From Pseudolabrys sp. (lineage in GTDB: Bacteria; Pseudomonadota; Alphaproteobacteria; Rhizobiales; Xanthobacteraceae), in NCBI GenBank assembly GCA_035546875.1, contig DASZVZ010000020.1, forward strand, positions 2,371 to 66,370: a DNA stretch of 64,000 nucleotides, read 5' to 3'. Below the pieces are notes generated by a model. The model saw only the letters and a list, made by a program, of their open reading frames with translations, was not told the origin of the DNA and did no database searches. This document shows, piece after piece, positions 4,292-61,129 of the stretch; positions within the stretch are counted from its first letter, which is position 1; every line of letters begins with the position of its first letter. A program made the translations under genes and the position numbers.

Positions 4292-5017
4292 ATGTGTGGG
4301 AGGCGCGTCTACGCGGCGGCGTCCGTCGCCGCGGCCTTCGTGATCGTGGCGAGTAGCGTGTCGGCGGAGCCGGTCGGGGCCGACAGCGCACGGTTCATTT
4401 TTTTCTCAGGCGTCGACCTCTGGCGCGAAGGTAGCTTCGCGCATGGCGGCCTCTTGTGGTCGCCCGGCGGACTTGCGCAGGAAGGCTTCACACTCAAGGC
4501 GCTGATTTCGGGCGGCAGCTACCGCTATTTTTCCGGCGGCCTCGGCACGACGGTCAACGGCACCGAGACCACCGCACAGTTCCTGCCCGGCTGGCGCTTC
4601 AAACACGGCACGATGGATCTGCAAGTCTTCGCCGGCCTGGACGTCGAGGAGCATCGCCTCTCGCCCGACGATCCTTCGAGCGGTTTGCGTGGACATGATG
4701 TCGGCGTACGCGGCGCCTTCGATTTCTGGTACGAGCCCGCGCCCGGTATGATGGTTGCGGCCGACGGCTCGCTCTCGTCCATTATCGGTACCTATTCGGC
4801 ACGCGGTGCGCTCGGCTGGCGCGCATTCGGTCTCGCCTATGTCGGCCCGGAAGCGCAGACCTACGCCTGCGACGGCTATCGCGAGATTCGTCTCGGCATG
4901 CACATAACTGGCCTGAAGACCGGCCAATTCGAATGGTCGATCGCCGCCGGATGGGCGCGCGATTCCGACGCGCGCACCGGCGCCTATGGCCGCGTCAGCG
5001 TGATGATGCGGCGCTAG
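4292..5017 (+). CDS. Secreted beta-barrel-like protein, BcsS-like (cellulose biosynthesis protein S family?)
   Basis: Signal peptide (VAAAFVIVASSVSAEP). Alternating aromatic/Gly-rich strands; resemblance to BcsS is from memory only. Confidence 0.5.
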   Translation: MCGRRVYAAASVAAAFVIVASSVSAEPVGADSARFIFFSGVDLWREGSFAHGGLLWSPGGLAQEGFTLKALISGGSYRYFSGGLGTTVNGTETTAQFLPGWRFKHGTMDLQVFAGLDVEEHRLSPDDPSSGLRGHDVGVRGAFDFWYEPAPGMMVAADGSLSSIIGTYSARGALGWRAFGLAYVGPEAQTYACDGYREIRLGMHITGLKTGQFEWSIAAGWARDSDARTGAYGRVSVMMRR

Positions 5018-5071
5018 CCCATGATCCCGAAAAGGGACACCGGCTTTCGGAAAGGATATTGCGCAAACGCA

Positions 5072-6232
5072 TCAATCCAATGTGCGGCGGAAGCGCGTGA
5101 CGGCTATCGTCATCGCGACCAGCATCAGGCCGGCGAGCGCGACCGCGTCGAAGCGCATATCGGCGATGGTCGAGCCCTTGAGCATGATCGAACGAACGAT
5201 GCGGAGGTAATGCGTGAGCGGCAGCGCCTCGCCGATCCATTGCGCCCAGCGTGGCATGCCGGCGAACGGAAACATGAAGCCGGACAGGAGAATGTTCGGC
5301 AGGAAAAACATGATCGACATCTGCATCGCCTGTAGCTGGTTCTGCGCCACCGTCGAGAACGTGTAGCCGATCGACAGGTTCGCGGCGATGAACAGTGTCG
5401 ACAGCAGCGCGAGCATGCCGAGACTGCCGATGATCGGTACGCCGAACACCAGGATTCCGATGCCGATGATCAGCGTCGCCTGGAGAAAACCGACGAGAAT
5501 GTAGGGAATGATCTTGCCGAGCATGATCTCAACCGGCGTGATCGGCATCGACAGGAGGCTTTCCATGGTGCCACGCTCGATCTCGCGCGTGACCGACAGC
5601 GCGGTGAAGATCAGCATCGTCATAGTGAGGATGGTGCCGACGAGGCCGGGCACAATGTTCAACTGGCTCGAGCCTGCCGGGTTGTAGCGCGGATGCGCGC
5701 GAATCTCGAACGCCGGCCGGCCGGCGTCCGGCACCGCGCGGTCGTGATCGAGCGCGCTTTGCACGATCTCGCCGAGCGCGCCGAGCGCCGAGCCGGACGC
5801 CACCGGATCGGTGGCGTCCGCGGCGACCAGCATCGCCGGCTTGTCGCCGCGCCGCACGGCTCGCTCGAAATTCGCGGGGATCTCGATCGCAAACAGCACC
5901 TTGCCGGAAGCCAGCAATTGGTCGAGCTCGGCTTCGGTATGCGGAAGCTGTGTGACCTTGAAATATTTCGTGTTTTCCAGTGCCGCCAGGATCGAGCGTG
6001 CAATGTCGCTGCGTTCCTGCAAGAGCACCGCCGTCGGTAGGTCGCGCGGCGTCGTGTTGATCGCGTAGCCGAACAGCAGAAGCTGGATCAGCGGGATCAT
6101 GATGATCATGGCGAACGAGACGCGGTCGCGCTTGAGCTGGATGAATTCCTTGATCAGCACCGCCCAGGTCTTGCGCCAGAAGCCGTCGCCCTTTAGCCGC
6201 CGCGCCGGTGCGCTCGGGATGACGTGCGTCAT
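5072..6232 (-). CDS. ABC-2 type transporter permease
   Basis: 386 aa with an N-terminal TM, a large loop and then five TMs (YbhS/YhhJ-like). ATGA-type overlap with the upstream ATPase. Confidence 0.85.
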   Translation of the reverse strand: MTHVIPSAPARRLKGDGFWRKTWAVLIKEFIQLKRDRVSFAMIIMIPLIQLLLFGYAINTTPRDLPTAVLLQERSDIARSILAALENTKYFKVTQLPHTEAELDQLLASGKVLFAIEIPANFERAVRRGDKPAMLVAADATDPVASGSALGALGEIVQSALDHDRAVPDAGRPAFEIRAHPRYNPAGSSQLNIVPGLVGTILTMTMLIFTALSVTREIERGTMESLLSMPITPVEIMLGKIIPYILVGFLQATLIIGIGILVFGVPIIGSLGMLALLSTLFIAANLSIGYTFSTVAQNQLQAMQMSIMFFLPNILLSGFMFPFAGMPRWAQWIGEALPLTHYLRIVRSIMLKGSTIADMRFDAVALAGLMLVAMTIAVTRFRRTLD

Positions 6233-7167
6233 TGGAAATTGTCCTTGGCCTTGCTCATCAGGTCGATGAACACGTCCTCCAGCGACGGCTCTCCACGCCG
6301 CCAGGTGAAACCTTCGTGCTGGCGGTAAGGCGCAATCGCCTTATCGAGGGCGGCCGCGTCGCGGCCAGACACGTGCAGGCTGGTGCCGAACGGCGCCACC
6401 ATGTTGACGCCGGGCTTGCCCGCGAGCTCGTCGGAAAGCTTGTTCAGCCCTTCGCCGTTCGCGGCGCCGACGATGTAGGTCGTCAGGTGCGAGGAGGCGA
6501 TGACCTCCTCGACCGTGCCGCGCGCGAGCAGATTGCCGTAAGCGATATAGGCAATCTCGTGGCATCGCTCGGCTTCGTCCATGTAGTGCGTCGAGACGAG
6601 CACGGTGAGACCGTCGGCTGCGAGCGCATGGATCTCGTTCCAGAACTCGCGCCGCGCCTTCGGATCGACCCCGGCGGTCGGCTCATCGAGCAGCAGCAAT
6701 TGCGGGCTCGGCAGCGTGCAGGCGCCGAGCGCGAGGCGCTGCTTCCAGCCGCCCGACAACTCTCCCGCAAGCTGCTGCTCGCGGCCGGACAATCCCAGCC
6801 GCTCGATCGCCGCGCGCGCGGCGGCGGCCGGATTGGCAATGCCGTAGACGCGCGCGATGAATTCCAGGTTCTCGCGCACCGACAGGTCCTGATAGAGGCT
6901 GAAGCGTTGCGTCATGTAGCCGACCTGACGCTTGATCTTGTCGGTCTCGGTGCGAATGTCGTAGCCGAGACAGGTGCCCTCGCCTTCGTCCGGCGTAAGC
7001 AGGCCGCACAGCATGCGGATCGTCGTCGTCTTGCCGGAGCCGTTCGGTCCGAGGAAGCCGTAGATCGTGCCGCGCGCCACCTGCATCGACAGGTCGCGCA
7101 CCACCGTGCGGCCGTCGAAACTCTTGGTCAGGCCGTGCACGTCGATGACGATGTCGGCGGCGTTCAT
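6229..7167 (-). CDS. ABC transporter ATP-binding protein
   Basis: GPNGSGKTT Walker A, LSGGWKQRL signature and LLLLDEPT Walker B. Confidence 0.9.
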   Translation of the reverse strand: MNAADIVIDVHGLTKSFDGRTVVRDLSMQVARGTIYGFLGPNGSGKTTTIRMLCGLLTPDEGEGTCLGYDIRTETDKIKRQVGYMTQRFSLYQDLSVRENLEFIARVYGIANPAAAARAAIERLGLSGREQQLAGELSGGWKQRLALGACTLPSPQLLLLDEPTAGVDPKARREFWNEIHALAADGLTVLVSTHYMDEAERCHEIAYIAYGNLLARGTVEEVIASSHLTTYIVGAANGEGLNKLSDELAGKPGVNMVAPFGTSLHVSGRDAAALDKAIAPYRQHEGFTWRRGEPSLEDVFIDLMSKAKDNFQ

Positions 7168-53165: not shown

Positions 53166-53264
53166 CCCGTCATCCTGAGGTGCGCCCCGAAGGCGCGCCT
53201 CGGAGGATGGCGGGCAATCACCCTTCGAGGCCGACGCTACGTGACGGCACCTCAGGGTGACGGG
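53166..53264. mobile_element. MITE-like element with 17-nt terminal inverted repeats (16/17) and a long internal imperfect hairpin
   Basis: Left end CCCGTCATCCTGAGGTG (53166-53182). Right end CACCTCAGGGTGACGGG (53248-53264). Internal CATCCTGAGGTGCGCC/GGCGCGCCTCGGAGGATG. Confidence 0.6.
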
Positions 53265-54454
53265 CTGTTGTCGATGGCGCCTGCGAGACCGTCCAGCACC
53301 TTCGCGACGTCCGCCTCGACCGCCGCAGCCGTCACCAGGATGACCTTGTAGCCGTGCTCCTCCAGCCAGATGCGCTTGGTGTCGCGCGCATGCGCGGCCG
53401 CTTCCTCCTCGCCCGCCGGCACAAGATCGATCACGCACTTGAGCGGAAAAGAGACGAAGTCTGTGATGTGCCGCCCGACCGGTACCTGCCGCTTGAAGCC
53501 GCGACCGGCGAAGCGGCGGTCGTTGGTGAGCGCCTGCCACAGGATGCGCTCGGCCTCGGTCGGATTGCGCCGCAGCAGGCGGGCAAGCCCGCGTGCAGGC
53601 GCGCGCTCGCCCTGCCCGCCCTGCTCGGCGAGCAAATTGCGCAGCATCTCGGCCTGCGCCCCGTCGAGCACGCCGCCGCGCGCCGGCCCTTTGCGCCCCT
53701 GCGCGAGTCCCATGAAGATCCCATGCAACGTGCGTACGTCCTGCTCGGACGGCGTCATGCGGTTGAATATGTTGCGCAGGTTGACGCTCATGGTTCCCCG
53801 CTTCTCGTGCGGGCGATAGAACTCGATGGCATCGAGCTCGCGCTCGAGATCGGCAAAGAACGCGTCGAGTTGCTGCTTGGGCGCCGACGGCGATTTATCC
53901 GGCATCGAAAACGGCAATTCACCGCCGCCCGCCCGCTTGAACCACTCGTAGGCGACGATGATCACCGCCTGCGCGAGATTAAGCGAGGCAAACGCCGGAT
54001 TGACCGGCAGCGTCAGGATGCGGTCCGCGAGACCGACTTCGTGATTTTCCAGTCCGTTGCGCTCGCGCCCGAACACCAGCGCCACCGTCTCGCCGGCCGC
54101 CACCTTGGGCGCGATCAGCCCGGCGGCGGCTTCCGCGCTCACCACCTCTTTCGCCTGGTCGTGATTGCGCGCCGTCGTCGCGATCACGAAGGTGCAATCG
54201 CCGATTGCTTCGTTCAGCGTCTCGTAGAGCGCGGCGTTGTCGAGGATGCGGTCGGCCCCCGCCGCCATCACGCGCGCCTTGTCGTTCGGCCAGCCCTGCA
54301 CCGGCTTGACCAGGCGGAGCTTCGACAAGCCGAAATTCGCCATCGCGCGCGCCGTAGCGCCGATGTTCTCGCCGAGCTGCGGCTCGACCAGCACCACCAC
54401 CGGCGCGGGTGTTTCGATCCAGCGCTTCGTCTTGTCGGTTCCTGAACCCGGCAT
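53252..54454 (-). CDS. TrmJ/SpoU-class RNA 2'-O-methyltransferase fused to a C-terminal DUF559 (Vsr-like endonuclease fold) domain
   Basis: N-terminal VVLVEPQLGENIGATARAMANFG...LVFGRERNGL...LNLAQAV. C-terminal NPTEAERILWQAL...GFKRQVPVGRHITDFV... ATG 54454. Confidence 0.75.
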   Translation of the reverse strand: MPGSGTDKTKRWIETPAPVVVLVEPQLGENIGATARAMANFGLSKLRLVKPVQGWPNDKARVMAAGADRILDNAALYETLNEAIGDCTFVIATTARNHDQAKEVVSAEAAAGLIAPKVAAGETVALVFGRERNGLENHEVGLADRILTLPVNPAFASLNLAQAVIIVAYEWFKRAGGGELPFSMPDKSPSAPKQQLDAFFADLERELDAIEFYRPHEKRGTMSVNLRNIFNRMTPSEQDVRTLHGIFMGLAQGRKGPARGGVLDGAQAEMLRNLLAEQGGQGERAPARGLARLLRRNPTEAERILWQALTNDRRFAGRGFKRQVPVGRHITDFVSFPLKCVIDLVPAGEEEAAAHARDTKRIWLEEHGYKVILVTAAAVEADVAKVLDGLAGAIDNSPSP

Positions 54455-54588
54455 AAGCTTCTCCGGCAGCCGGTATAGCGGCGAGCCGTCCCCACCAAAA
54501 GCGCCGGGCACGTTGATTTTGACCCGTGGCTCTGGAAATCTTTGCGCCGAACGCGCCGGATTGAACGGCCGCGTTCGAGGGGGCATTC

Positions 54589-55707
54589 ATGACATTTCGC
54601 CGCAGCGCGCCTGCCGCGCTCATCGCCGTGGCAGCGCTCGTTATTGCCGTCATTACATGGGCGACACACTGGATGTTCACCGGGCTGACGGCCGCGACCG
54701 AAGCGAGCCAGTTTGAGCTCATGCAAGCTGCCGTCGCGCGCGCCATCGGCAACGGCGCCGTGCAGGCCCTGGCCCGCGCGGAGATCGTCGCGGCGTCGAG
54801 CACCACCAAGCAGGCGGTCGCCGCGCGCGACCGCACGCGCCTGCTCGAAGAATATGCCGAAATGTTTCAGGTGCAGAAGGAGCGCCGCGGCGTCGATCAG
54901 GCGGCATTTCACATTCCGCCCGCGACCTCTCTCCTGCGGTTGCAAGCGCCCGACAACCACGGCGACGATCTCACCAAATTCCGCCCGATGGTCGTCGCCG
55001 TCAATCGCGAGCATAACGGCCGCGGCGGCCCGGCTCTCGGCCGCACCGGTCCGGCCGTTTTCGGCGTCGCTCCGGTGACCGACAAACAGGGCCAGCACAT
55101 CGGAAGCTTCGAATTCGGCCTCGATCTCGCGCCCATGCTCGACAGTCTCAAGGCCGCTTACGGTTTCGATTTCGCGCTCTTCATCGAGGAAAAGCCGTTG
55201 CGCGAATACGCCCGCGGCGTCGACCCCGCCAAGCTCAGCGACCAGAACCGCGTCGGGCGCTTCATGCGCTTCCACACCACCAACAAGGCCGTGATGACCG
55301 ACCTCGTCGGCGAGAGCGACATCGCGACGGTGACCGAACCGACCCACTACACGCGCGAGTCGCAGAATCTCACCTACGGCGTGTTGCAGGTGCCATTGCG
55401 CGACAGCGCCGGAAGCCCGATCGGCGTCATCAGCGTCGCGCGCGATTTCAGCGCGACCCGCGCCGCCGTCGGCCGCGCATTCGCCTGGCAACTGTGGCTC
55501 GCGATCTGCGGACTCGTCATCCTCGCCGGAGCCATCGTCGTCGTGATCCGCGGCTTCCTGCTGCGCCCGCTCGACGTCATCAACGAACGCTTTGCGGCGA
55601 TGGAAAGCGGCAAGCCGCCCGCCCCGCTGCCGCCGGGCGAAAAATTCTGCGCCGAAATCACCGAGCTTGCGCGTCACCAGGAGCGGCTGCTGGCCGCGCG
55701 TGCGTGA
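54589..55707 (+). CDS. Membrane sensor: TM - double-Cache-type periplasmic domain - TM - HAMP, with no output domain
   Basis: GAGGGGG SD. Cache hallmarks (LRLQAPDNHGDDLTKFRPMVVAVN; HIGSFEFGLD). HAMP-like RPLDVINERFAAMESG...EITELARHQERLL, then stop. Confidence 0.8.
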   Translation: MTFRRSAPAALIAVAALVIAVITWATHWMFTGLTAATEASQFELMQAAVARAIGNGAVQALARAEIVAASSTTKQAVAARDRTRLLEEYAEMFQVQKERRGVDQAAFHIPPATSLLRLQAPDNHGDDLTKFRPMVVAVNREHNGRGGPALGRTGPAVFGVAPVTDKQGQHIGSFEFGLDLAPMLDSLKAAYGFDFALFIEEKPLREYARGVDPAKLSDQNRVGRFMRFHTTNKAVMTDLVGESDIATVTEPTHYTRESQNLTYGVLQVPLRDSAGSPIGVISVARDFSATRAAVGRAFAWQLWLAICGLVILAGAIVVVIRGFLLRPLDVINERFAAMESGKPPAPLPPGEKFCAEITELARHQERLLAARA

Positions 55708-55711
55708 CGTC

Positions 55712-56776
55712 ATGCGGCGCGCCTTGCTCACCCTGGTGATCGCGCTGTTTGCCGCGAGCGCGGCGCAGGCGCAGACCGGCGTCCCGACCGGAAAGGGCCT
55801 CCCGGTGCGCGTGAACGTCGCGGTCGAATTTGTCGAGCTCATCGGGTTCAAGGAAAACACCGGCGTTCTCACTGCAACGGTCGACGTGCGGCTGCGCTGG
55901 CAGGATTTGCGGCTGCGCCGCTCCGCGCAGGACGCGAGCCAGTCTCCGCAAATCTTCCGCGGGGCGGAAGCCGGCGCCCAGATCGCGAAGATGTGGGTGC
56001 CGCCCGTCGAATTCGCCAACCAGCGCGGCAAGGCTGCCTACACCAGCGCCGGCTTGTGGATCTATCCCGATGGCAGCGTCGAGATGATCAAGCGCACCAG
56101 CGGCGACTTCGCCTCCAGCGTGAGCGTCGACAGTTTTCCGTTCGACCGGCAGAAATTGCGTCTCGACATAGCTGTCCGCGACGTCGACGCGCAAACCGTC
56201 GTGCTGGTCTTCGACGAAAACGACCTTAACGACAGCCGGCGCTCGAAGCAGGCATCGCTCGACGGCTGGGAGCTCGGCAACGTGACCTTGCGCGGCGAAG
56301 CGATGAACGGCTGGCACGGCGCGACCCATTCGCAGGTCGTCGCCTCGCTCGAGATCATCCGCGAGCCCGCGATGATCATCGCGTCGATCTTCATCCCGCT
56401 GTTCGCCTCGCTGCTCATCCCGATGCTGTCGATCTGGCTCAACCGCAGCAAGGACGGAAATTTCCGCATCGAGACCTTCGAGCTGGTGAACATCATCATC
56501 GGCGGCCTGTTCGCGGTCATTGCGCTCAACTTCACCATCAATTCGACCTACGAGATGCTCGGCTCCGGCGCCAATCCGGTGCACGAATTGCTGGCGCTCA
56601 ACTACCTCACGCTCGGAATAGGCCTCGTCGTCAACGTGCTGCTGTTCCGATACGGCGTCGTCGCGCGCCTGTTCGGACGCTACGTGCAGGAGCAGGTGTA
56701 TTTCTTCGTGTGCTGGGCGCTGCCCGTGCTCACGCTGGCGACGGCGGCGATGGTCATCGGCATTGCGCTCGCCTAG
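55712..56776 (+). CDS. Prokaryotic pentameric ligand-gated ion channel (Cys-loop receptor superfamily) homologue
   Basis: Signal peptide. VRLRWQDLRL; MWVPPVEFAN; FPFDRQ (56135-56152). Four C-terminal TM helices with a short M3-M4 loop. Confidence 0.8.
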   Translation: MRRALLTLVIALFAASAAQAQTGVPTGKGLPVRVNVAVEFVELIGFKENTGVLTATVDVRLRWQDLRLRRSAQDASQSPQIFRGAEAGAQIAKMWVPPVEFANQRGKAAYTSAGLWIYPDGSVEMIKRTSGDFASSVSVDSFPFDRQKLRLDIAVRDVDAQTVVLVFDENDLNDSRRSKQASLDGWELGNVTLRGEAMNGWHGATHSQVVASLEIIREPAMIIASIFIPLFASLLIPMLSIWLNRSKDGNFRIETFELVNIIIGGLFAVIALNFTINSTYEMLGSGANPVHELLALNYLTLGIGLVVNVLLFRYGVVARLFGRYVQEQVYFFVCWALPVLTLATAAMVIGIALA

Positions 56777-56829
56777 CCGACGCAAAAAACGATTCGCGAA
56801 ATGGGAGCCGCCGCGCCGAAAGCCGTTGC

Positions 56830-57456
56830 TCAGAACAGACCGGCGAGCAGGAAATCGACGACGAAGGAGACAATGCTGCCGGCCACCGCGAGCAGAAATG
56901 CCGTGCCCATGCCCGGCAGCGCGAAGGCCACCTTCATGATCCGCATCGGAAAGAAGATGGCGACCGCGACCGCCGCGACGCCATGCATGACGAGCGCCCA
57001 CCACGGCTCATGCGCGCTGATGCCAAAGCGGACGATCATGATGCCCGGCGCGACCAGCGCGGCAATCGTCCACAGGTAACCGACCAGGCCGGGCAGCACG
57101 CGCTCAGGCGCGGCCACCAGCCGGGCAAGGCCCCAGGTGACGGCGCCCGCGACGATGAACCTCATCGCCGTCCCGAAAGTGACGATGGCGAGAACGATCG
57201 CCGTGGCGCGGGCGTTGATGCTTACGAGGTGGCGCGCCTCCGCGCTGGTGCCGATCGCGTAGCCGACTTGAATGACGACGAACAGCACCAGCGGGAGAAT
57301 GAAATCGGTCCAGCGCACCTCGGCATTGCGGAAAACATCGTGGTCGCCGGGACGGCCGAAGGCGATCTTGTAGATCGAGACGATATAGTCGCCGACCGTC
57401 CGCCGCAGTCGAACGGCGTCGTCCGGCACGACCTGCCCGGCAGGCTGCGTGGTCAT
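56830..57456 (-). CDS. Hypothetical polytopic membrane protein
   Basis: ORF 56830..57597 trimmed to ATG 57456; five hydrophobic helices. Confidence 0.55.
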   Translation of the reverse strand: MTTQPAGQVVPDDAVRLRRTVGDYIVSIYKIAFGRPGDHDVFRNAEVRWTDFILPLVLFVVIQVGYAIGTSAEARHLVSINARATAIVLAIVTFGTAMRFIVAGAVTWGLARLVAAPERVLPGLVGYLWTIAALVAPGIMIVRFGISAHEPWWALVMHGVAAVAVAIFFPMRIMKVAFALPGMGTAFLLAVAGSIVSFVVDFLLAGLF

Positions 57457-57643
57457 GGCAGTCACCCCTGACGGCAATCCTAGTGCAGGCGCCCGCGCGT
57501 GTCGCCGGCGTTTCGTTTCAGCGCTTGGCCTTATCGGTACCGGCCCGCCGCCACCGGCCCTCCACGGGGCGGCATGGCGCGGGCCGAATCCGGCCAATGG
57601 TCACGAAAGGCAGGCTTTGAAGCCCCGCGGGCGGGTGCTATAG

Positions 57644-59899
<2,256 letters not shown>

Positions 59900-59914: not shown

Positions 59915-61129
59915 ATGGCGAAGATCAAGGTCACAAATCCCGTCGTCGAAATGGACGGCGACGAGATGACCCGCATTATCTGGCAGCTCATCAAGGACAA
60001 GCTGATCCATCCCTATCTCGACGTTCAGCTGCTCTATTACGATTTGAGCATCCAGAAGCGCGACGAGACCAACGACCGGATCACCATCGACGCGGCCAAC
60101 AAGACGCGCGAGGTGGGCGTCGCCGTCAAATGCGCCACCATCACGCCGGACGAAGGCCGCGTGAAGGAGTTCGGCCTCAAGGAGATGTGGCGCTCGCCGA
60201 ACGGCACCATCCGCAACATTCTCGGCGGCACGATTTTCCGCGAGCCGATCATCTGCAGGAACGTGCCGCGCCTCGTGCCCGGCTGGACCAAGCCGATCAT
60301 CATCGGCCGCCACGCCTACGGCGACCAGTACCGCGCGACCGATTTCAAGTTTCCGACACCCGGCACGATCTCGATCAAGTTCATCGGCGACGACGGCACG
60401 GTGATCGAGCGCGAAGTCTTCAAGGCGCCCGAGAGCGGCGTCACGATGGCGATGTACAATCTCGACGGCTCGATCCGCGATTTTGCCCGCGCCTCGATGA
60501 ACTACGGATTGAATCGCGGCTACTCGGTCTACCTCTCGACCAAGAACACGATCCTCAAGCAGTACGACGGCCGCTTCATGGAGCTGTTCCAGGAAGTGTT
60601 CGACAACGAGTTCAAGGACAAGTTCGCCGCGAAAAAGATCACCTATGAGCATCGCCTGATCGACGACATGGTCGCGTCATCGCTCAAGTGGTCGGGCGGC
60701 TACGTCTGGGCGTGCAAGAACTACGACGGCGACGTGCAGTCCGACACGGTCGCGCAAGGTTTCGGATCGCTCGGTTTGATGACGTCCGTGCTGATGACGC
60801 CGGACGGCAAGGTGGTCGAGGCAGAAGCCGCGCACGGCACCGTGACGCGCCACTACCGCGAGCACCAGAAGGGCAAGGAAACCTCGACCAACTCGATCGC
60901 GTCGATCTTCGCCTGGACACGCGGGCTCGCGCATCGCGCCAAGCTCGACAACAACTCGCAGCTCGCGAATTTCGCGACCACGCTGGAAAAGGTCTGCGTC
61001 GACACTGTCGAGGCTGGTTTCATGACCAAGGATCTCGCGTTGCTCGTCGGCCCCGACCAGAAGTGGCTCTCGACCACCGGCTTCCTCGACAAGGTCGACG
61101 AGAACCTCAAGAAGGCGATGGCGGCCTAG
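59915..61129 (+). CDS. icd: NADP-dependent isocitrate dehydrogenase, homodimeric type-II (eukaryote-like, 404 aa)
   Basis: [23 protein letters not shown]...GRHAYGDQY... Confidence 0.95.

Follow-up and report, generated by a model that had tools for sequence, protein, structure and literature searches.

What is the output of a bacterial receptor that ends 52 residues past its second transmembrane (TM) helix, and why does the gene for a ligand-gated ion channel begin directly behind its stop codon? The question is raised by a locus in a 64,000-nt stretch of DNA (the window) from Pseudolabrys sp. (assembly GCA_035546875.1, contig DASZVZ010000020.1), in which a gene for a dCache_3 sensor (gene 1) is followed on the same strand by a gene for a predicted subunit of a pentameric ligand-gated ion channel (pLGIC) resembling GLIC (gene 2). 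We find that the pairing of these genes is strict and reciprocal and spans at least five bacterial phyla. Our favoured reading, to which we assign a probability of roughly 60%, makes the Cache/HAMP protein a dedicated auxiliary subunit that controls or tunes a cation-selective pentameric pore, so that the channel would be the sensor's output; the weaker claim, that the two genes form an obligate functional pair, we hold with considerably more assurance. The two open reading frames (ORFs) have the coordinates and lengths assigned to them in an earlier, sequence-only reading of the locus, which had proposed a two-protein chemoreceptor-channel, and they meet as follows:

54589..55707, + strand: gene 1, 372-aa output-less sensor (TM1, dCache_3, TM2, HAMP-like stub); ORF from ATG 54589 to TGA 55705-55707
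55705..55714, + strand: gene junction with TGA stop, 4-nt spacer (cgtc) and ATG start, read from the sequence
55712..56776, + strand: gene 2, 354-aa GLIC-like pLGIC subunit; ORF from ATG 55712 to TAG 56774-56776, with Pfam and NCBIfam matches

A sensor gene and a channel gene kept together

We surveyed the pairing from both sides. Scanning the channel alignment against one genome per species returned 80 loci, found in Alphaproteobacteria, Myxococcota, Verrucomicrobiota and Acidobacteriota as well as in one Polaromonas and one metagenome-assembled genome (MAG) of the Leptospiraceae, and a full-length Cache gene lies immediately upstream, on the same strand, in 76 of them. The four exceptions comprise two contig ends and two decayed copies with damage in both genes. 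In the opposite direction, the Cache alignment was scanned against metagenomes and gave 34 loci, 28 of which extend at least 260 nt downstream, and a channel gene stands next to the Cache gene in all 28. The conserved pairing, which had been offered as a check on the initial proposal, is thus present from either side. The arrangement is real, no artefact, and far beyond chance, as adjacency recurs in every assessable related locus. It also holds for distant Cache stubs: wherever downstream sequence is available, the next gene codes for a Neur_chan_LBD protein (four of four cases, the most distant stub being 33% identical to the window protein), with an overlap of 4 nt in three of these pairs and of 1 nt in one. 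Two metagenome loci (L112 and L113) considered as a deeper clade were rejected, their contigs being ridden with frameshifts.

Cultured carriers of the pair include Azorhizobium oxalatiphilum CCM 7897, Bosea sp. BK604 and Rhizobium herbae DSM 26427, and it is also carried by Brevundimonas sp. TWP2-3-2, Polaromonas sp. SM01 and Verrucomicrobia bacterium LW23. One Myxococcota MAG (bin73) contains two whole pairs (L062 and L076) that are divergent paralogues, with channels 45% and 39% identical to that of the window, and one Rhizomicrobium MAG has two copies of the pair, which are identical matches on two contigs (L007 and L008). Two carriers (L012 and L016) are labelled as MAGs of 'uncultured Clostridia bacterium', while their proteins are about 50% identical to alphaproteobacterial ones; their placement could reflect mis-binning or horizontal transfer.

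The two decayed copies were inspected individually. In Rhizobium sp. RCAM05350 (L070, CP087974.1, ~4960-7020) both genes are split over reading frames, and in a Verrucomicrobiae MAG (L071, ~5780-6860) a deletion has fused the Cache protein at residue ~104 to the channel at residue ~70. Both partners are damaged jointly in each case, with sequencing or assembly error as a possible cause.

No third gene shares this conservation: when all flanking ORFs within 4.5 kb were clustered for 78 loci, nothing past lineage-level synteny emerged, and the commonest neighbour cluster, an ABC-F ATPase, was present at only 12 of the 78. The module is therefore self-contained and found in unrelated chromosomal contexts; no plasmid copy of the pair was found.

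The junction in the window, where the stop codon precedes the next ATG by 4 nt and no Shine-Dalgarno (SD)-like GGAG, GAGG or AGGA occurs in the 20 nt before ATG 55712, had been read from the sequence in the same way and taken as a sign of coupled translation. The relatives make the stronger case. Of 82 distinct relative pairs, 73 have a 4-nt overlap (ATGA or GTGA) between the ATG or GTG of the channel gene and the TGA of the Cache gene, the 4-nt spacer of the window being a minority variant among the pairs. By our rough estimate, chance alone would produce an in-frame NTGA overlap about 25% of the time, and since the observed fraction exceeds this value, we regard the overlap as a conserved feature, of the kind typical of translationally coupled subunits. 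Sensor and channel have also diverged in step, their pairwise distances being correlated with r = 0.90, a value to which shared phylogeny contributes.

The two proteins and the surroundings of their genes

The gene 1 product matches Pfam dCache_3 (PF14827) over residues 48-288 (E 1.9e-28, 100.1 bits vs a cutoff of 25.7), and its AlphaFold2 (AF2) model, with a mean confidence (pLDDT) of 68, contains a long N-terminal TM/stalk helix and two alpha/beta PDC modules, followed by the TM2 helix (288-339), a 15-residue loop (340-354) and a last helix (355-371); residues 111-154 and 201-226 are of low confidence. The TM1-Cache-TM2 layout recognised from the letters alone is accordingly recovered by profile and model alike. 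As had also been noticed, the protein has no output module: Pfam models for MCPsignal (PF00015), kinase, GGDEF and HAMP all remain without a match, and the chain ends 52 residues past TM2. Foldseek places full-length models of methyl-accepting chemotaxis proteins (MCPs) and dCache ligand-binding domains of chemoreceptors and kinases at the top of its list, while a sequence comparison with the PDB yields only insignificant CitA fragments. The parts of the sensor are:

54613..54681, + strand: TM1, about residues 9-31, after the conserved cytoplasmic N-terminus MxFRRxAP; a hydrophobic run following the RR pair, and the N-terminal helix in AF2
54730..55452, + strand: periplasmic double-Cache (dCache_3) ligand-binding domain, residues 48-288; Pfam, Foldseek and a conserved motif
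55480..55548, + strand: TM2, about residues 298-320; continuous AF2 helix 288-339
55549..55704, + strand: divergent HAMP-like helix-connector-helix stub, residues 321-372, up to the protein end; AF2, BLASTP and hhalign
54577..54583, + strand: SD-like GAGGGGG, 6 nt before the gene 1 ATG; direct sequence reading

Conservation in the family is not confined to the ligand-binding domain, whose motif FHxPPAxSxLRL...GDDLxxFRP is common to the family and a true dCache_3 MCP. At the N-terminus, M1, F3, R4 and P8 are conserved in at least 80-95% of 83 sequences; W300 and Q301, at the periplasmic end of TM2, are invariant, and the two ends of this helix follow the pattern WQ...RGxLLRPL throughout the sensor family.

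Could gene 1 be the remnant of a truncated MCP which by chance lies beside a pLGIC gene? Its N-terminal architecture is that of dCache_3 MCPs, and in public data (JGI) homologues of about 375 aa are named 'methyl-accepting chemotaxis protein' despite having no MCP signalling domain. Against this, the homologues share an end point. The proteins encoded in the 80 genome loci measure 368-415 aa, with no MCPsignal domain found in close homologues and no full-length MCP seen at this position in close relatives; among the matches listed, the top 120 range from 330 to 421 aa and are mostly 370-380 aa long. An exhaustive HMMER search with gene 1 retrieved 3137 relatives, and after clustering at 50% identity 77 cluster representatives with E <1e-30 were obtained, mostly of ~365-395 aa; longer relatives with MCPsignal or GAF/PAS outputs become frequent only from about 30% identity downwards, the nearest non-stub relatives being dCache_3-HAMP MCPs and GAF/PAS proteins. 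Together with the overlap of the channel gene and the Cache stop codon in most relatives, the uniform lengths and the size of the family refute the remnant explanation, to which we give practically no credence. What gene 1 encodes is no MCP: it is a dCache_3 sensor that ends in a HAMP-like stub.

A variant sensor (P0250, P0296 and L115; 582-790 aa) carries an additional N-terminal 4HB_MCP_1 domain ahead of the dCache_3 stub. At one such locus (L115, 928-2867) the sensor gene ends in a 4-nt overlap with an ORF that starts with the channel signature ...MGKGLPV. Most of the partner channels go under the name 'hypothetical protein' in public data.

The gene 2 product matches Pfam Neur_chan_LBD (PF02931) over residues 28-219 (E 3.1e-15, 56.6 bits vs a cutoff of 26) and NCBIfam LGIC_1. 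The profile searches thus agree with the dCache and pLGIC assignments made beforehand; for the other two profiles that had been named, HAMP and Neur_chan_memb, the window proteins gave no match. In the case of Neur_chan_memb (PF02932) there was none at E up to 1, and homologues likewise match PF02931 only. The AF2 model (pLDDT 74) nevertheless has an N-terminal helix, a low-confidence linker and a beta-sandwich (32-217), followed by four helices, M1 (219-242), M2 (255-279), M3 (289-313) and M4 (323-353), with a short M3-M4 link, in line with the four TM helices expected from the sequence. As modelled, the TM domain has diverged in sequence and retained its fold. GLIC is the closest solved protein both by sequence (E 2.5e-15 for the protein alone and 2.7e-22 with a family profile) and by fold (Foldseek TM-score 0.71-0.82 over ~336 columns, covering the whole chain), and Foldseek also matches ELIC, DeCLIC, GlyR and RDL. 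The corresponding features are:

55712..55774, + strand: signal peptide, residues 1-21 (...AAQA/Q); sequence reading, and the N-terminal helix in the model
55793..56368, + strand: periplasmic ligand-binding beta-sandwich, residues 28-219; Pfam
56135-56152, + strand: Pro-loop FPFDRQ, residues 142-147; motif and conservation
56366..56770, + strand: transmembrane pore domain M1-M4, residues 219-353; AF2 helices and conservation
56474-56548, + strand: M2 helix, near-invariant IIGGLFAVIALNFT (83 sequences, several phyla)

All three Cys-loop-receptor signatures reported for this protein, LRWQDLRL, WVPPVEFAN and FPFDRQ, could be located. F142, P143, F144, Q147 and the pre-M1 arginine R217 are invariant (15 homologues for F142, P143, F144 and R217), D145 of the Pro-loop is kept in at least 80% of 83 sequences; a WxP motif and a proline in the M2-M3 loop are invariant as well, and the loop-C motif G200 W201 G203 H206 is conserved in the channel family. 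Judging from these motifs (Pro-loop FPFD, pre-M1 R217 and M2-M3 Pro), the standard hardware that connects the extracellular domain (ECD) to the TM domain in gating appears intact. By its ECD, modelled fold and gating motifs the gene 2 product belongs to the pLGIC superfamily, and a conducting pentamer is predicted. Two cytoplasmic elements specific to the family are strongly conserved in the 83 sequences, NRxEDGxFQIE in the M1-M2 loop and FGRYVQEQ in the M3-M4 link, and in the profile alignment with GLIC the M1-M2 loop contains 9 inserted residues.

The genes around the pair are housekeeping genes that belong to other operons or lie on other strands. Its GC content (0.63-0.67) equals that of the flanking DNA and a search for plasmid homologues was empty, so that a signature of horizontal transfer was rejected. 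A promoter and terminator scan of 54000-57300 gave nothing exceeding the shuffled background and no sigma-70-like promoter. The neighbouring genes are:

53252-54586, - strand: upstream and divergent, 444-aa ORF with SpoU rRNA methylase (residues 63-213) and C-terminal DUF559 (334-434); the listed start abuts the gene 1 ATG, and the true start is probably further in
56830-57597, - strand: 255-aa hydrophobic ORF converging on the channel gene, without a Pfam match; not kept beside the pair in other loci, according to the flanking-ORF clustering of 78 loci
57677-59899, + strand: monomeric isocitrate dehydrogenase (PF03971, 740 aa, 1298 bits)
59915-61129, + strand: dimeric-type Iso_dh (PF00180, 404 aa), 15 nt after the monomeric isocitrate dehydrogenase gene

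Isocitrate dehydrogenase genes of two different types are thus arranged in tandem downstream of the pair.

Possible control of the channel by the sensor

Because the sensor is without an output, is never found apart from the channel, is apparently co-translated with it and has it as its sole conserved partner, the most economical assumption is that the channel serves as that output. From these observations we infer that the proteins form a physical complex, which of them controls the other, which ions pass and what the physiological read-out is. The periplasmic double-Cache domain would bind a small molecule, and the signal would run via TM2 into the short degenerate HAMP. Ligand-driven motion of the sensor TM helices and HAMP could then be passed to the homopentameric channel and bias its opening, whether through periplasmic contacts between Cache domain and ECD, through lipid-facing TM contacts, or through the conserved cytoplasmic loops specific to the family. 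Once open, the pore would convert a chemical signal from the periplasm into a flow of cations or a shift in membrane potential. The conserved cytoplasmic segments of both proteins are candidate contact elements.

Several observations weigh against this reading. Physical contact and gating between sensor and channel are putative. HAMP and dCache sensors are normally dimers and the channel is a pentamer, which results in a symmetry mismatch; together with the loop-C motif conserved in the channel, this is the chief difficulty for the reading we favour. The conserved loop-C and aromatic set (GWYGxxH, W95 and W186) means that the channel may bind a ligand of its own, independently of the sensor. 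Both AF2 models are of moderate quality, as their pLDDT values show. Finally, the analysis of covariation between the two proteins (mutual information with average product correction, 88 pairs, effective number of sequences 55) returned clade markers only and is uninformative: the top covarying pairs reuse a few clade-marker columns and join cytoplasmic to periplasmic positions.

The identity of the sensor tail belongs to the same side of the balance. PF00672 does not match the tail of the window protein, even when the isolated tail is searched at E up to 10, and the tails of six of ten family members give full-length HAMP matches that stay below threshold (12.9-23.1 bits vs a cutoff of 25). 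On the other hand, hhalign of the family-tail profile against Pfam-verified HAMPs of dCache_3 relatives gives a probability of 85% (E 5.8e-6), and the BLASTP alignment with P0316, a dCache_3-HAMP-MCPsignal protein of 32% identity, runs through TM2 into the Pfam HAMP of P0316. The tail pattern is conserved in the family as RPL, G and E-[ILM]-x-x-L, with C-x-E-[ILM] in place of the canonical DEIG. The HAMP-like segment noticed in the sequence-only reading therefore keeps some support from the helix-loop-helix in the model, the sub-threshold matches of relatives and the profile alignment, and it is weaker than claimed as far as Pfam is concerned. We speak of a HAMP-like tail rather than of HAMP because Pfam detection on the window's tail was negative: it appears to be a degenerate positional homologue of HAMP that lies under the curated threshold.

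The selectivity of the pore has to be treated with similar caution. Alignment to GLIC tentatively places E257 at -1', N260 at 2', G264 at 6', F267 at 9', A271 at 13' and F274 at 16'. A glutamate ring at -1' is the classical determinant of cation selectivity in nicotinic-type receptors. Since E257 aligns at this position, at the cytoplasmic mouth of M2, the channel is probably cation-selective, with low certainty given that the alignment is weak in this stretch; the whole pore-lining assignment stands on these low-confidence columns, another point to be set against our interpretation.

It should also be considered that the Cache protein may act as a helper in assembly, trafficking or ligand capture, for instance as a chaperone for assembly of the pentamer or by concentrating an agonist and presenting it to the orthosteric site of the channel, all without conformational signalling and with the HAMP-like tail as a mere element of dimerisation or stability. 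The degenerate HAMP would fit such a role, as would the conserved loop-C and aromatic residues of the channel ECD, which are compatible with the channel having its own binding site, and stoichiometric co-translation suits a chaperone or an obligate structural subunit equally well; moreover, Tasneem et al. proposed 'preliminary concentration or sensing' by operon-linked binding proteins (PMC549065). Yet a two-TM sensor with a cytoplasmic N-terminus and a TM2-HAMP junction (RGxLLRPL) conserved across phyla looks over-elaborate for a presenter, the known ligand-presenting partners being soluble or lipid-anchored binding proteins, and we consider both the helper role in general and its chaperone and presenter variants unlikely.

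In still another alternative, the two products are co-regulated and act independently: the stub would signal to an unlinked partner, for example in heterodimers with full-length dCache_3 MCPs or kinases, and the channel would be a separate response to the same cue. The uninformative covariation analysis demonstrated no sensor-channel contact, and heterodimers are conceivable in view of the dCache_3-HAMP MCPs and GAF/PAS proteins among the nearest non-stub relatives. This explanation is difficult to reconcile with strict reciprocal co-occurrence and a 4-nt overlap maintained in phyla with very different signalling repertoires, with the joint decay of both genes, and with the absence of a conserved third gene from the clustered flanks, and it appears to us quite improbable, more so than a helper role.

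We thus retain the auxiliary-subunit reading, in agreement with the earlier proposal, which all three of its own refutation checks left standing. Its extension, a widespread class of heteromeric pLGICs working only with a HAMP-terminated double-Cache subunit and acting as direct output of a HAMP-type sensor, is a tentative proposal which we would rate somewhat below even odds. Prokaryotic pLGICs such as GLIC, ELIC, sTeLIC and DeCLIC have been structural workhorses for neurotransmitter receptors, and their bacterial roles and regulation are largely unknown; a clade that always comes with its own sensor provides a handle on this physiology, as the ligand of the Cache domain would reveal the cue. 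The pair offers a tractable model of auxiliary-subunit modulation of pLGIC gating and a possible new type of HAMP partner, an ion channel instead of a kinase, a chemotaxis array or a cyclase, and the existence of cultured carrier strains makes the idea directly testable. If true, the ion channel would be a kind of output that is not on record for receptors with Cache or HAMP domains, and the pair would be a bacterial counterpart of channel-auxiliary pairs such as CaV-alpha2delta. It would also be the first case, to our knowledge, of a prokaryotic pLGIC that cannot do without an auxiliary subunit acting in trans. The systematic mis-annotation of the sensors as 'methyl-accepting chemotaxis protein' is corrected as well.

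Relation to known systems

Comparison with GLIC, ELIC and other prokaryotic pLGICs shows a shared beta-sandwich ECD with M1-M4, a cysteine-less Pro-loop FPFD, the WxP motif, the pre-M1 arginine and a short M3-M4 link. GLIC and ELIC are, as we take it, stand-alone homopentamers, whereas in the clade of gene 2 a dedicated upstream Cache-HAMP gene is always there. Identity between GLIC and gene 2 is only ~19%, and the latter is without a Neur_chan_memb match. The clade further differs from GLIC in a strongly conserved M1-M2 loop that is about 9 residues longer, in a conserved M3-M4 link, and in an unusual M2, tentatively with G at 6' and F at 9' and 16'.

Extra periplasmic sensor modules on a pLGIC core are known in cis, from the MCP-N+Cache-pLGIC fusions of Methanosarcina, Cytophaga and Microbulbifer (PMC549065) and from DeCLIC, whose N-terminal domains are reported to modulate gating (PMC9897478, PMC12664993). 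The pair in the window shares the added module and differs in that the sensor is a separate polypeptide that has its own pair of TM helices and, on the cytoplasmic side, a HAMP-like stub. Any coupling must hence act in trans, possibly by way of the membrane or the cytoplasm. In this respect, the variant sensor extended by 4HB_MCP_1 mirrors the 'MCP-N + Cache' pLGIC fusions of Tasneem 2005.

On the sensor side, dCache_3-HAMP MCPs and GAF/PAS sensors have a homologous half, with ~30-32% identity through dCache_3 and TM2 into HAMP, and the motif FHxPPAxSLLRL...GDDLxxFR is common to them and gene 1. Unlike them, gene 1 has no MCPsignal, kinase, GGDEF, GAF or PAS output, its chain ending behind AS2 of the HAMP-like segment. 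The 2016 census of Cache proteins gives histidine kinases, MCPs and GGDEF/EAL as outputs of dCache_3 and does not list an ion channel (PMC4822843).

A functional analogy exists with alpha2-delta of animal voltage-gated calcium channels, likewise a Cache-domain protein acting as a separate auxiliary channel subunit, which appears as a weak entry (6jp5_F) in the Foldseek list of the gene 1 model; the same parallel was drawn in Tasneem 2005 (PMC549065). The two are not homologous as systems: alpha2-delta has dCache_1, another Cache subfamily, with VWA and no HAMP, and its channel belongs to another superfamily.

The closest precedent is the report of Tasneem, Iyer, Jakobsson and Aravind in 2005 (PMC549065) that a simple pLGIC of Rhodopseudomonas palustris shares a predicted operon with a stand-alone Cache gene, together with the suggestion that such operon partners cooperate in chemoreception, parallel to the Cache-pLGIC fusions elsewhere. 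As an alphaproteobacterial pLGIC of simple architecture with a separate Cache gene, the R. palustris pair probably belongs to the same family, although it is not among the 80 loci returned by our channel scan. Full-text searches on the association between a Cache gene and a pLGIC and on dCache_3 ligands, as well as Jaiteh 2016, gave no characterisation going further than that report. Of the separate sensor subunit proposed for the window, the conserved full-length family paired with the channel stands, and the association itself had already been noted. The 2005 report covers one genome in one sentence, with HAMP tail, TM topology, translational coupling, phyletic survey and experiment all absent. 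What is new with respect to it is reciprocal conservation across phyla, the 4-nt overlap and the architecture of two TM helices with a HAMP stub, as well as the family-specific cytoplasmic elements, the variant sensor with the 4HB extension and the joint decay of the two genes.

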